Shown: positions 59,677 through 62,123 of the stretch, one piece after another
Position numbering within the stretch: position 1 is the first letter of the stretch
How the letters are laid out: every line of letters starts with the position of its first letter
Origin: Escherichia coli
GTDB taxonomy: Bacteria > Pseudomonadota > Gammaproteobacteria > Enterobacterales > Enterobacteriaceae
Assembly (NCBI RefSeq): GCF_003334815.1
Contig: NZ_QOWO01000026.1
DNA length: 62,123 bases
Strand: one strand, 5' to 3'
Position numbers and translations under genes: made by a program
Notes under the pieces: generated by a model
Seen by the model: only the letters and a program-made list of their open reading frames with translations
Databases searched by the model: none
What the model was told of the DNA's origin: nothing

Positions 59677-59750
59677 GCGGGCGTAGTTCAATGGTAGAAC
59701 GAGAGCTTCCCAAGCTCTATACGAGGGTTCGATTCCCTTCGCCCGCTCCA
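59677..59750 (+). tRNA. glyU: tRNA-Gly (anticodon CCC)
   Basis: 74-nt cloverleaf GCGGGCGTAGTTCAATGGTAGAACGAGAGCTTCCCAAGCTCTATACGAGGGTTCGATTCCCTTCGCCCGCTCCA with encoded CCA; acceptor stem GCGGGCG/CGCCCGC; anticodon loop CUUCCCAAG. Confidence 0.97.
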
Positions 59751-59864
59751 TGACACTTCTTAAAGTATTCCAACTTACTGAATCCTAAGGGATATGGCTT
59801 AACGCCTCCTTGCAGAGTTACTTACTGTAACCCACTGTGTAACCCTCTCAGGGCATACAGACAT

Positions 59865-61511
59865 ATGATTCAGCTATCCAGCAGTCACAAACTTCCAGCC
59901 GTCTCCTATCTCTACCAGCGTAACGGCGTCTACTACTTCCGTCTTCGGGTCAGACAATCAAACAATGATAGAATGACCTCAATATCATTACGGACCAAGG
60001 ATAGACGCACCGCTATGGCTCACTCAAGGCACATCAAGGCAGCACTCAAGGCAATACACGCAGACAGACCCAACGCTACCTATGAGGAAATGAGGGAGCA
60101 CCTTAAGGACATCGCTGAGTGTGAACTGTCTATGGGCCGTTCAGATCTCTTTGAGCCTGACATGAGGGATATCTACCGGGACCAATACGGAGAACTTGGT
60201 GAGAGCCTTACCGATGCTCTGGCTAGTGAGCCGCTAAGTATTGACCAGCATCGTTACATCAATGAGGCCCTGAAGGTGCTAAAAGCCTGCATGAGGCGTA
60301 TCGAAGCGGGAGACAGTCAGCCTCTGATAGATTACGTCGATCATTTTAATGATATTGATAGGCAAGATAGCCAAGTAGCCTCTGTGTCCCTATCTGTTAA
60401 TGCTCCAGAAGTAAAACCAGAAGTAAAACCAGAAGTAAAACTAGAAGTAAAACCAGAAGTTACGCCTAGCATTACCATAGCGAGCCTCTTTGAGCAATAC
60501 GAAGCGGAGAATTATCAGAACTGGAAGCCTGCAACCTTAAGGGAAAACAAGGCGTCACACGCTGCGTTAATCGAAATATTCGACCATCTGGGTCTCAATG
60601 CAGACGCTAACAGGGCTGACATGCTTAAGGTCCGTGATGTGCTCCAGCAGTTACCTAGGAACCGTAAGCAGCGCTTCAAGGATGCCCCACTTGCTGACCT
60701 GTTGAGCCGTGAAGATAAGACAGATTGTCTGGATGTCGTTACCATCAACAACAAGTATCTTATTAAGATGGCTGCTGTCTTTAGGTGGGCTGTGCGCAAT
60801 GACTTGATTAAAAAGAACATGACTGAGGGTCTGGAGCTTAAAGTCCCTCAGCGTAAAGCCTCAGGGGCCCGTAACGCCTTCTCTACGGAGCAGGTGGGGC
60901 AACTACTGGTCGCAGCTAAGGCATACTCTCAGAAGACCTCTGGTAAGCCCTACCACTATTACGTTACGGCTTTGGCTGCTATCACTGGGGCGAGACTCAA
61001 TGAAATAGCCCAACTACAGGTCAAAGACGTCAGGACCACTGAGGCGGGAACCGTTTATATTCATATCAATGAAGACGATAGTAGTCTACCCGGTAAGAGC
61101 ATCAAGAACGCTCATAGTGACCGCTGTGTGCCTCTGGTCGATGGGGCCTATGGTTTTATATTGGCTGACTTTATGAGGTTGGTTGAGACCCGTAGAGGCG
61201 CTGATGGTGATGACGCTATGGTGTTCGATGGTCTTCGCCTCATGAAGAACGGTTACGGTGAGCAGGTGAGTAAATGGTTTAATCGGACGTTGTTGCCTAA
61301 AGTCCTCGCAGATCGTAGCGGCTTAGCGTTTCACTCGTTTAGACATACAGTTGCGACCCAGTTAAAACAACATGGGGTCGAGTTGGCGTATGCACAGGCG
61401 ATCATGGGGCATAGTTCAGGGTCTATTACTTACGACCGTTATGCTAAAGAGGTTGAGGTTGATAGGCTGGTCAATGTGATGGCTGATGTTTATAAGGAGA
61501 TTGTGGGGTAA
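59865..61511 (+). CDS. Tyrosine recombinase / phage-type integrase (548 aa)
   Basis: C-terminal catalytic signature: GARLNEIAQL (Arg), HSFRHTVATQL (His-x-x-Arg), GHSSGSITYDRY (His...Tyr nucleophile). N-terminal YLYQRNGVYYFRLRV arm-type domain. Adjacent to the tRNA. Confidence 0.9.
   Translation: MIQLSSSHKLPAVSYLYQRNGVYYFRLRVRQSNNDRMTSISLRTKDRRTAMAHSRHIKAALKAIHADRPNATYEEMREHLKDIAECELSMGRSDLFEPDMRDIYRDQYGELGESLTDALASEPLSIDQHRYINEALKVLKACMRRIEAGDSQPLIDYVDHFNDIDRQDSQVASVSLSVNAPEVKPEVKPEVKLEVKPEVTPSITIASLFEQYEAENYQNWKPATLRENKASHAALIEIFDHLGLNADANRADMLKVRDVLQQLPRNRKQRFKDAPLADLLSREDKTDCLDVVTINNKYLIKMAAVFRWAVRNDLIKKNMTEGLELKVPQRKASGARNAFSTEQVGQLLVAAKAYSQKTSGKPYHYYVTALAAITGARLNEIAQLQVKDVRTTEAGTVYIHINEDDSSLPGKSIKNAHSDRCVPLVDGAYGFILADFMRLVETRRGADGDDAMVFDGLRLMKNGYGEQVSKWFNRTLLPKVLADRSGLAFHSFRHTVATQLKQHGVELAYAQAIMGHSSGSITYDRYAKEVEVDRLVNVMADVYKEIVG
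60380..60399 (+). other. 20-nt match to the T7 terminal-repeat end plus the concatemer-junction class II pause signal (CTCTGTGTCCCT|ATCTGTTA)
   Basis: Compared with my recollection of the T7 left end (...GAGTGTCTCTCTGTGTCCCTATCTGTTACAGTCTCC...). Contains the conserved ATCTGTT heptamer at 60392-60398. Lies in frame inside the integrase linker region. Confidence 0.55.
60405..60464 (+). repeat. In-frame 12-bp tandem repeat x5 encoding PEVK-PEVK-PEVK-LEVK-PEVT
   Basis: ccagaagtaaaa x3, ctagaagtaaaa, ccagaagttacg read directly. Confidence 0.95.
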
Positions 61512-61631
61512 CCAAGCTGTCCACCCCCGGGGAGATTTGCCTTGAGGATGACCATAGTCGATGACCATATTGCTACAGGCCTGTGTGGTCATGTTTTTGA
61601 CTCACGGTTTTCACTACTTGTCAAGGATTTC

Positions 61632-61654
61632 TAATACGACTCACTATAGAGAGA
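61632..61654 (+). promoter_or_regulatory. Bacteriophage T7 RNA polymerase promoter (22/23 match to consensus)
   Basis: TAATACGACTCACTATAGAGAGA versus the consensus TAATACGACTCACTATAGGGAGA. All of -17..-1 is identical, +1 G falls at 61649, and the only mismatch is at +2. Confidence 0.85.
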
Positions 61655-61769
61655 AGGGACACAAAAAGTTTTCTCTCTTTCTCTCTCTTCTAGGACACTT
61701 GCTACTACTACTACAGGCCTGTGTGGTCATGTTTTTGACTCACAGTTTTCACTACTTGTCAAGGATTTC

Positions 61770-61792
61770 TAATGCGACTCACTATAGAGAGA
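61770..61792 (+). promoter_or_regulatory. Second T7 RNA polymerase promoter (21/23 match)
   Basis: TAATGCGACTCACTATAGAGAGA: A-to-G at -13 and G-to-A at +2; +1 G at 61787. Confidence 0.8.
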
Positions 61793-61860
61793 AGGGACAC
61801 AAAAAGTTTTCTCTCTTTCTCTCTCTTCTAGGACACTTGCTACTACTACTACAGGTAGCT

Positions 61861-61896
61861 CTAACTCTAACTCTAACTCTAACTCTAACCGTAACT
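61861..61896 (+). repeat. Hexanucleotide microsatellite (CTAACT)4 plus two degenerate units
   Basis: ctaact x4, then ctaacc and gtaact, read directly immediately after the 138-bp repeats. Confidence 0.95.
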
Positions 61897-62046
61897 TATC
61901 GCATCCTTTCAGGGGCGGGATGACCAATTACAGACACCAAGCGTTCTACTTAAAGTGAATGCTTCCTGTGTGCTCTGGGTCAGTCGATAAGTGAATAGCA
62001 ATAGACATCATATTAAATATGGTCTCTACCCTACAGGGGCTTAACT

Positions 62047-62123
62047 CTGATGAATCCCCTAATGATTTTGGTAAAAATCATTAAGTTAAGGTGGATACAC
62101 ATCTTGTCATATGATCAAATGGT
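62047..62123 (+). mobile_element. IS10 outside end (first 77 bp; the element continues past the window)
   Basis: CTGATGAATCCCCTAATGATTTTGGTAAAAATCATTAAGTTAAGGTGGATACACATCTTGTCATATGATCAAATGGT matches the IS10/Tn10 outside terminus, including the pIN region with its dam GATC (62113-62116). The flanking 9 bp GGCTTAACT resembles the NGCTNAGCN target hotspot. Confidence 0.9.

Follow-up and report, generated by a model that had tools for sequence, protein, structure and literature searches.

The last 2.3 kb of the stretch of Escherichia coli DNA analyzed here (62,123 nucleotides of contig NZ_QOWO01000026.1, hereafter the window) appear to be the left end of a small integrative element that parasitizes phages of the T7 supergroup (Studiervirinae) and that is interrupted by an IS10 insertion sequence, a reading that we consider reasonably probable. 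The element is probably an undescribed satellite of strictly lytic T7-type phages. Helpers of this supergroup are strictly lytic phages that turn off transcription in the host and break down its chromosome. No satellite of T7-group phages is described in the literature that we searched, in agreement with the original prediction, which was made from the sequence letters of the window and proposed a T7-dependent satellite or T7-sensing element. That proposal now has the support of att boundaries, phage promoters, a concatemer-junction motif, an origin-like block, a capsid gene and the anti-T7 gene RAZR. We give about an even chance to the more specific proposition that this is the first satellite family of the T7 supergroup and that it works by mimicry of helper signals, with exchangeable promoters, a T7-like origin, a junction hidden in the integrase gene (int) and a capsid of its own for a 6.4-kb unit. 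In effect it would constitute a novel phage-satellite family, with an unusual reliance on signal mimicry and an unexpected group of helpers.

The integration target is glyU, a tRNA-Gly(CCC) gene found with ARAGORN at 59677..59750 on the + strand, and the same tRNA flanks the element in most genera. The attL core TTCGATTCCCTTCGCCCGCTCCA (59728..59750, +) is the 3' end of this tRNA, and the identical 23 bp recur as a direct repeat to give attR in complete relatives, for instance L003 (4133/8409), L009, L012 and L026 (relatives are cited here by such locus numbers), as well as in others. The direct repeat of the glyU 3' end that had been expected as attR was therefore found in complete relatives; that of the window copy lies beyond the window edge. 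Next to attL come the left arm of the element (TGACNTTTCTTAAAGTAYTCCAACYTACTGAATCCTAAGG..., 59751..59864, +), conserved across genera in an alignment of arms, and, 114 nt past the tRNA, an open reading frame (ORF; 59865..61511, +) for a tyrosine integrase of 548 aa with a DUF6538 N-terminal region and a Phage_integrase catalytic domain (Pfam E 2e-18). The intact tRNA followed by a 548-aa integrase had been correctly called in the original prediction. An integrase homolog, 65-98% identical, heads every element. These features identify a mobile element that integrates by means of its own tyrosine integrase at the 3' end of tRNA-Gly and that is bounded by att sites, as would be expected of a satellite.

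Related int and downstream segments were found by megablast in 365 of 5,426 complete E. coli genomes, always in the chromosome, and uninterrupted relatives of the window copy are among them. When one genome per species was scanned for the integrase, it turned up, besides E. coli L023, in 16 more species representatives from other genera of the Enterobacterales: Klebsiella, Lonsdalea, Pectobacterium (two species), Rouxiella, the unclassified Enterobacteriaceae isolate RIT691, Morganella, Enterobacter, Buttiauxella (two), Citrobacter, Shigella, Shimwellia, Proteus, Serratia and Edaphovirga. Most copies adjoin tRNA-Gly(CCC), and tRNA-Gly(TCC) is an alternative site in two IMG/VR contigs. In many genera the elements are bounded by perfect att repeats of 17-23 bp. 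For instance, a mini form of 4,276 bp in E. coli FT130 (L003) lies between perfect 23-bp repeats of the 3' end of glyU, and att repeats delimit a second mini form of 4,379 bp in isolate RIT691 (L016). The larger units delimited by att repeats are those of Proteus cibi (L026, 6,160 bp), Pectobacterium jejuense (L014, 6,288 bp), a Buttiauxella metagenome-assembled genome (L021, 6,385 bp), Buttiauxella gaviniae (L020, 6,403 bp), E. coli 22F46 (L009, 6,413 bp), a Logan contig (L029, 6,429 bp), Klebsiella pneumoniae ATCC 13883 (L012, 6,435 bp) and Enterobacter sp. (L019, 6,447 bp). Unit lengths cluster at 6.29-6.45 kb and 4.28-4.38 kb (L003, L009, L012, L014, L016, L019-L021 and L029); 6 x 6.4 kb and 9 x 4.3 kb each come to ~38.5 kb (38-39 kb), which is near the genome length of T7-group phages. 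The clustering could reflect concatemer packaging or the capacity of a small capsid. Elements tend to accumulate in tandem at the glyU site; in Morganella psychrotolerans (L018, 7859-13420) two related ones lie side by side there.

The promoter array directly follows the int stop codon (61511). A tandem duplication (2 x 138 bp; 61568..61843, +), the units of which (61568-61705 and 61706-61843) are 97% identical, carries one T7-type promoter per unit. Promoter 1 (TAATACGACTCACTATAGAGAGA, 61632..61654, +) departs from the 23-nt T7 class III consensus (TAATACGACTCACTATAGGGAGA, -17 to +6) at one position (+2 G>A), and T7 phi1.1A likewise has A at +2. Promoter 2 (TAATGCGACTCACTATAGAGAGA, 61770..61792, +) departs from it at two (-13 A>G and +2 G>A), and the G at -13 recurs in L011. 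Shuffling the window 100 times gave an expectation of 0 matches against the 2 observed, which bears out the two tandem T7 promoters of the original prediction. Promoter arrays in relatives consist of 1, 2 or 3 tandem units, with 1-4 promoters per element; these include exact copies of the consensus and perfect 26-nt matches to T7 phi6.5, phi10, phi13 and phiOR. Fifteen complete elements, 91 kb in all, contain 28 copies of the core CACTATAGG on the + strand and 0 on the − strand, and there is no copy in 196 kb of flanking DNA or in the window's 59.7 kb of E. coli chromosome, which carries xdhABC, actS and glyU. When the non-coding region of the window was compared with 50,697 phage genomes using blastn, the promoters alone were matched, with no longer homology.

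The specificity region of the promoters (-17 to -8) varies with element lineage and includes T7, K11, KP32, K1F and ICP3 types. Klebsiella-type elements have AATTAGGGCACACTATAGGGAGA, which is identical to the promoter annotated as phi9, phi10 and phi13 in phage K11, plus a T7-type promoter. E. coli 22F46 combines such a K11-type and T7-type pair with a third promoter of a type that matches KP32-like phages, where it occurs at 10-13 sites per phage genome. The promoter of the Proteus element is identical at 30/30 positions to promoters of the T7-like vibriophages ICP3 and N4 (13-17 copies per genome), and a second E. coli/Shigella family, with integrases 72% identical, has promoters matching Kayfunavirus, Citrobacter-phage and Enterobacter-phage types. 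Pectobacterium jejuense elements have the core CACTATTGGGAGA instead. Single elements thus combine promoters for several different phage polymerases, and to our knowledge E. coli has no polymerase that reads T7-type promoters. Taken together, these facts argue that the element has been selected to be read by infecting T7-group phages.

Could the promoters instead have come from a laboratory, as an artefact or an engineered insertion of, for example, vector-derived T7 promoters? The sequence TAATACGACTCACTATAG is indeed ubiquitous in cloning vectors. The K11, ICP3 and K1F promoter variants, however, are not used in vectors, the flanks of the segment have no vector match, and what carries the promoters is a native, att-bounded element with diverged sequence in 365 E. 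coli genomes and 16 representatives of other genera. Engineering, which the original prediction had named as a possible undoing of its proposal, is excluded by this natural diversity of genera, att sites and a tandem pair, and we regard it as vanishingly improbable.

Another signal of T7 type is concealed within int. The 20-mer CTCTGTGTCCCTATCTGTTA (60380..60399, +) agrees at 20/20 positions with T7 nt 149-168, that is, ATCTGTT together with the final 12 bp of the 160-bp terminal repeat. The original prediction had recognized a 20-mer resembling a concatemer junction and was silent on its location; it lies upstream of the promoters and spans the int codons A-S-V-S-L-S-V. On the non-template strand ATCTGTT is a strictly sequence-specific, orientation-dependent class II pause/termination signal of T7 RNA polymerase, and the natural copy in T7 is located at the concatemer junction. 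Mutants of T7 RNA polymerase that are blind to the signal are said to be defective in concatemer processing, in work ascribed to Lyakhov in 1997 and to Zhang and Studier. The element has the exact 20-mer, ATCTGTT included, on the same strand as the promoters, which is the orientation that the pause signal requires. With T7 nt 131-180 as query, matches were obtained in 629 phage records (from Klebsiella, Escherichia, Yersinia, Salmonella, Dickeya and other hosts), and in many of these the matched segment is the exact 20-mer T7 148-167; the K11 record annotates the site as 'concatemeric junction'.

The nucleotides of this motif are constrained beyond the needs of the protein. Among relatives with 81-89% protein identity, 6-7 of 6-7 four-fold sites within the motif are invariant, as against 55-59% of four-fold degenerate sites shared elsewhere in int. 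At least three lineages show the constraint (the Klebsiella type, L030 and Pectobacterium), indicating that the sequence is maintained as DNA. More distant clades have variants at the same position, e.g. CCCTATCTGTAT and CTTATCTGTTA. The variant motif of the mini forms was considered as a phage signal and dropped, since no phage match was found for it.

The origins of T7 (phi1.1A/B, phiOL and phiOR) consist of a T7 promoter and an AT-rich region. A candidate origin of this architecture, promoter and then AT-rich block, is present in relatives: in intact copies a block of 17-27% GC made up of "CTTAAAG"-type words is found 200-350 bp downstream of the promoters. When aligned with the AT-rich part of the T7 primary origin that follows phi1.1B, the block scored 43-47 (shuffles 18-20 ± 3.5; 0/500 reached this). 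Against the region after phiOL, the blocks of E. coli L001 and L003 scored 48 (shuffles 20-21.5 ± 3.6; 0/500) and that of L009 scored 28 (shuffles 18.5 ± 3.1; 7/500). Pfam, PHROGs and ORF scans found no replication protein encoded in the elements. The T7 primase sites TGGTC and GGGTC are enriched 5-8x; we dropped them as evidence because other pentamers are more enriched, the arrays repeating those sites. After the AT-rich block, L003 (6700-6730) and L009 (11885-11925) have an inverted repeat, GGTGAT(N)ATCACC, that also follows phiOR in T7 (39330-39362) and K11 (~40610-40640); the similarity is modest for T7 (30 vs 19.3±2.2) and not significant for K11.

In the window the promoters and the block are separated by IS10. 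A conserved, non-repetitive stretch of ~150 nt (…CGCATCCTTTCAGGGGCGGGATGACC…CCTACAGGGGCTTAACT; 61898..62046, +), which is shared with L001, L003, L006, L008 and L009, runs into the origin-like block in relatives; in the window, homology to uninterrupted relatives continues to 62046 and then ends, so that the insertion point is the exact start of the AT-rich block of intact copies. What follows is the end of an IS10-type insertion sequence (CTGATGAATCCCC, 62047..62123, +, the start at 62047 being judged by eye), the final 75 nt of which (from 62049) match, with 100% identity, the end of plasmid R100's IS10-type element. The interruption by IS10 that had been read from the sequence is thereby upheld. 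With this insertion and its mutated promoters, the window copy is probably crippled and inactive.

The original prediction took the visible cargo of the island to be cis-acting signals. The signals are there, as described above, and complete relatives carry 4-6 genes as well, a capsid gene included. The canonical 6.4-kb form is co-oriented and reads int, an optional gene, the promoters or promoter arrays, a variable DNA-binding protein (Rha, KilA-N, Bro-N or other), F2 (58-76 aa), a DUF6971 protein, F1 (326-375 aa) and attR. Elements hold 4-7 ORFs, and the sole structural one is the capsid protein, F1. The mini forms (4.3 kb) have the KilA-N protein and a small membrane protein and are without the capsid gene. 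Upstream of their KilA-N gene is a degenerate promoter-like sequence, AATCAATACGACTTACTAATAGGAGA (L002, L003 at 6893-6918, L004 and L011), which is conserved and, with one substitution and one inserted base, resembles T7 phi1.1A. The second E. coli/Shigella family (E. coli ECMA0423, L023, and Shigella flexneri, L024; int at 8001-9593) has the same gene order, including the capsid gene, and in the slot after int a different gene of 139 aa with a weak HEPN match.

F1 belongs to the relatives and lies outside the window. Its AlphaFold2 model (pLDDT 70.4, pTM 0.64) retrieved 113 PDB and 133 BFVD viral matches with Foldseek at E ≤ 0.001, and the top 50 matches listed per library, at probability 1.00, are with few exceptions capsid or head proteins of phages or encapsulins. 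The fold matches include the T7-like phages HRP29, PhiM1 and Kp9 and the SaPIbov5 procapsid. The modelled fold identifies F1 as an HK97-fold major capsid protein. It has no detectable sequence similarity to T7 gp10 (hhalign E 0.39) and no tblastn match in the 50,697 phage genomes, and all clusters of F1 homologs that bear an organism name are from Enterobacterales. In the Klebsiella element L012 the strongest hairpin terminator is directly 3' of the capsid gene, and sigma-70-like promoters are depleted (1 found vs 6.4±2.4 expected). The gene before that for the capsid encodes DUF6971, which corresponds to PDB 5EUR, an uncharacterized protein on which no literature was found. It has a charged C-terminal coiled coil, and our guess is that it may have an assembly or scaffolding role. 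F2 was considered as an excisionase and rejected, because its confident model had no fold match and no PDB or Pfam match.

A decayed temperate T7-like (Autographiviridae) prophage might also have kept, together with a genome end, what is seen here: a tRNA-linked integrase, promoters of T7 type, a junction sequence and a gene for an HK97 capsid, in copies many of which have been hit by insertion sequences. A remnant of this sort should have left other traces. Yet no single-subunit RNA polymerase, DNA polymerase, terminase, T7-type portal, capsid or tail gene was found, nor remnants of the polymerases, portal, tail or terminase. In sequence the capsid protein is not related to gp10, nor does it match any of the phage genomes, and single elements mix promoters for several polymerases. 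Moreover, at least seven genera share one ~6.4-kb gene order in which the ORFs are intact and the att repeats perfect, a recurrence that random decay would not yield. We therefore think prophage decay very improbable. In Pfam and PHROGs scans the elements have no portal, tail, terminase or polymerase, and the lack of a full set of virion, lysis and replication genes means that the element must depend on a helper.

The optional slot between int and the promoters is often occupied by PD-T7-4/RAZR (PADLOC E 4e-99), a zinc-finger and DUF4145 (HEPN) protein that is carried by L009 (10763-11395), L012, L018-L020, L029 and L030. It is lacking in L001 and in the window copy, where the promoter array directly follows int. 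PD-T7-4 was found by selection for T7 resistance and was observed to "often overlap an integrase gene"; RAZR, its present name, is an abortive-infection HEPN RNase that is activated by assembling around the portal ring of T7 or T3 (PMC9519451, PMC13017515). The gene in our elements is the same and has the same position, abutting or overlapping the integrase gene. Those papers, however, treat the protein and not an element, and in the family described here RAZR is optional. No description of an element that hosts PD-T7-4/RAZR was found in the literature searched.

A proven anti-T7 abortive-infection gene in many members raises the possibility that the whole element is a defence island that is triggered by phage RNA polymerase and is not transferred by phages. 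The promoters would then be infection sensors that drive a toxic or interfering operon made up of the DNA-binding protein, DUF6971 and the capsid-like protein. The last of these would poison the assembly of helper heads, the junction and origin-like DNA would act as decoys for the polymerase, replisome and terminase of the phage, and the island would spread by other routes. Several facts suit this explanation: viral and metagenome contigs yielded no free or packaged form, the mini forms keep the promoters, KilA-N and membrane protein without the capsid gene, and KilA-N has a weak PADLOC match. But a pure sensor has no need of a correctly oriented packaging junction whose nucleotides are constrained, nor of an origin-like block, and a full-length, conserved HK97 capsid protein with its terminator and a unit length tightly conserved between genera are left unexplained. 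RAZR itself, besides being missing from the window copy and L001, is outside the promoter-driven operon. Moreover, the two explanations overlap, given that known satellites combine interference with transfer. We judge a defence island without phage transfer to be rather unlikely, and prefer a satellite of T7-type phages.

How might such a satellite work? We infer from sequence that the element would be excised, replicated and packaged by the phage. It would stay silent as long as no T7-type phage is producing RNA polymerase of its own; such silence is expected from the dependence on phage promoters and agrees with the depletion of sigma-70-like promoters measured in L012. The phage polymerase would then fire the promoter array and express the operon, the specificity region being matched to particular T7-group types. 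Transcription into the AT-rich block would prime replication by the phage replisome, as at T7 origins, and the integrase, with an additional helper factor, would excise the element. On circles or concatemers the junction motif may serve as the pause and cut site for the phage terminase, leading to packaging, for which there are two options. The element could fill small capsids built of its own capsid protein on the helper portal, which would explain the tight unit length of 6.3-6.45 kb, or it could be packaged as multimers of helper-genome length (6 x 6.4 kb or 9 x 4.3 kb, ~38.5 kb). RAZR and the other variable genes would be defence cargo, as in other satellites.

Several observations weigh against this scheme. 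No exact match to the attP 37-mer was found in viral and metagenome contigs, and a search with a left-arm pattern, which recovered 25 further contigs (21 metagenome, 4 IMG/VR), gave integrated or tandem copies and no free circle. The ~6.4-kb Logan contig L029 was considered as a free unit and rejected, as it is an integrated copy broken at the att repeats; L030 starts in unrelated flanking sequence and not at an att site. T7 degrades host DNA early in infection, which leaves little time for excision. The junction motif is upstream of the promoters, and on the circular path the terminator lies between them, so that a polymerase starting at the promoters would reach the motif only on a circle or concatemer and by reading through the terminator. 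No excisionase, portal, terminase or replication gene was found in the elements, F2 having no fold match, and the lack of similarity between F1 and gp10 makes a fit of F1 to the helper portal uncertain. The abortion of T7 infection by RAZR seems hard to reconcile with the exploitation of T7. Finally, many E. coli copies are disrupted by insertion sequences or are mini forms without a capsid gene, and the window copy has promoters with 1-2 substitutions and is cut by IS10.

Among known systems, cf-PICIs (~14 kb) also encode an HK97-fold capsid protein of their own. They have a full head module (capsid, portal, protease, adaptors and small terminase), exploit temperate helpers and steal only tails. 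The element described here has, in place of a complete head module, the capsid protein alone, possibly with DUF6971 as a partner, and its presumed helpers are lytic and T7-type. It also differs from P4-like satellites and classical PICIs: Pfam, PHROGs and PADLOC found no primase/replicase, repressor, sid/psu/delta or cpm/terS. Plasmids carrying a T7 origin and the concatemer junction are reported to be replicated and packaged by T7, a result credited to Chung and Hinkle in 1990. The components shared with that plasmid-transduction system are promoters, an AT-rich origin-like region and the concatemer junction; it was, however, a laboratory construct, whereas here there is a natural, integrating, gene-carrying element with promoters for multiple polymerases.

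PICMI of the Vibrionaceae is likewise an integrative element of ~6 kb with minimal genes and defence cargo that exploits virulent phages (PMC10803314), an ability that for our element is deduced from its sequence. The integration site of PICMI adjoins fis, and its core genes are those for an integrase, AlpA and a primase; PICMI is packaged as concatemers of helper-genome length, the genome of its characterized helper Phi115 being 47.9 kb (PMC10803314). This precedent fits the ~38.5-kb multiples of the units found here. The element differs from PICMI in that its target is tRNA-Gly, no AlpA, primase or other replication protein was detected, the origin logic of the helper is apparently borrowed, and the 6.4-kb form has its own HK97 capsid; PICMI has no capsid gene, and neither phage-polymerase promoters nor a junction mimic have been reported for it. 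By analogy, then, PICMI is the closest functional counterpart, and the T7 plasmid-transduction system is the closest precedent for the cis logic.

T7 and related phages are textbook examples of self-sufficient lytic phages and workhorses of phage therapy (e.g. Klebsiella Przondovirus). If the satellite interpretation is correct, virulent phages of T7 type could move RAZR and other defence genes, along with chromosomal DNA, from one member of the Enterobacterales to another, and RAZR/PD-T7-4, so far studied in isolation, would gain a natural context. The promoter array would be a readable record of the phages to which the element of each strain has adapted, and six genes would amount to a very small toolkit for hijacking a tailed phage. 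The promoter, origin and junction cassette and the small capsid protein would also be natural parts for T7-dependent DNA delivery.

The window copy has some minor features of its own. Directly after the junction motif, int contains a 12-nt coding repeat, (PEVK)n (60405..60464, +), the copy number of which, as translations compared between strains reveal, is strain-dependent and greater in the window than in L001. A (TAACTC)n microsatellite (61856..61897, +), absent from L001 and L003, and a CT-rich expansion (61660-61700) are particular to the window copy; because of expansions in this copy its promoter unit is 138 bp, vs 118-121 bp in relatives. As originally noted, there is no convincing gene between int (from 61512) and the insertion sequence: the sole long ORF (61561-61923, 120 aa) spans the tandem repeat, and its counterpart in relatives is 63-69 aa. 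In a search of the window Rfam matched tRNA as its sole family, and none for the conserved stretch at 61898..62046. L001-L011 and the window copy are frequent targets of insertion sequences (IS10, IS1, IS2, IS3, IS100, IS66 and ISEc68). In E. coli 21AR0133 (L001, 27432-29384) an unrelated island with a 650-aa integrase lies directly downstream of the element.

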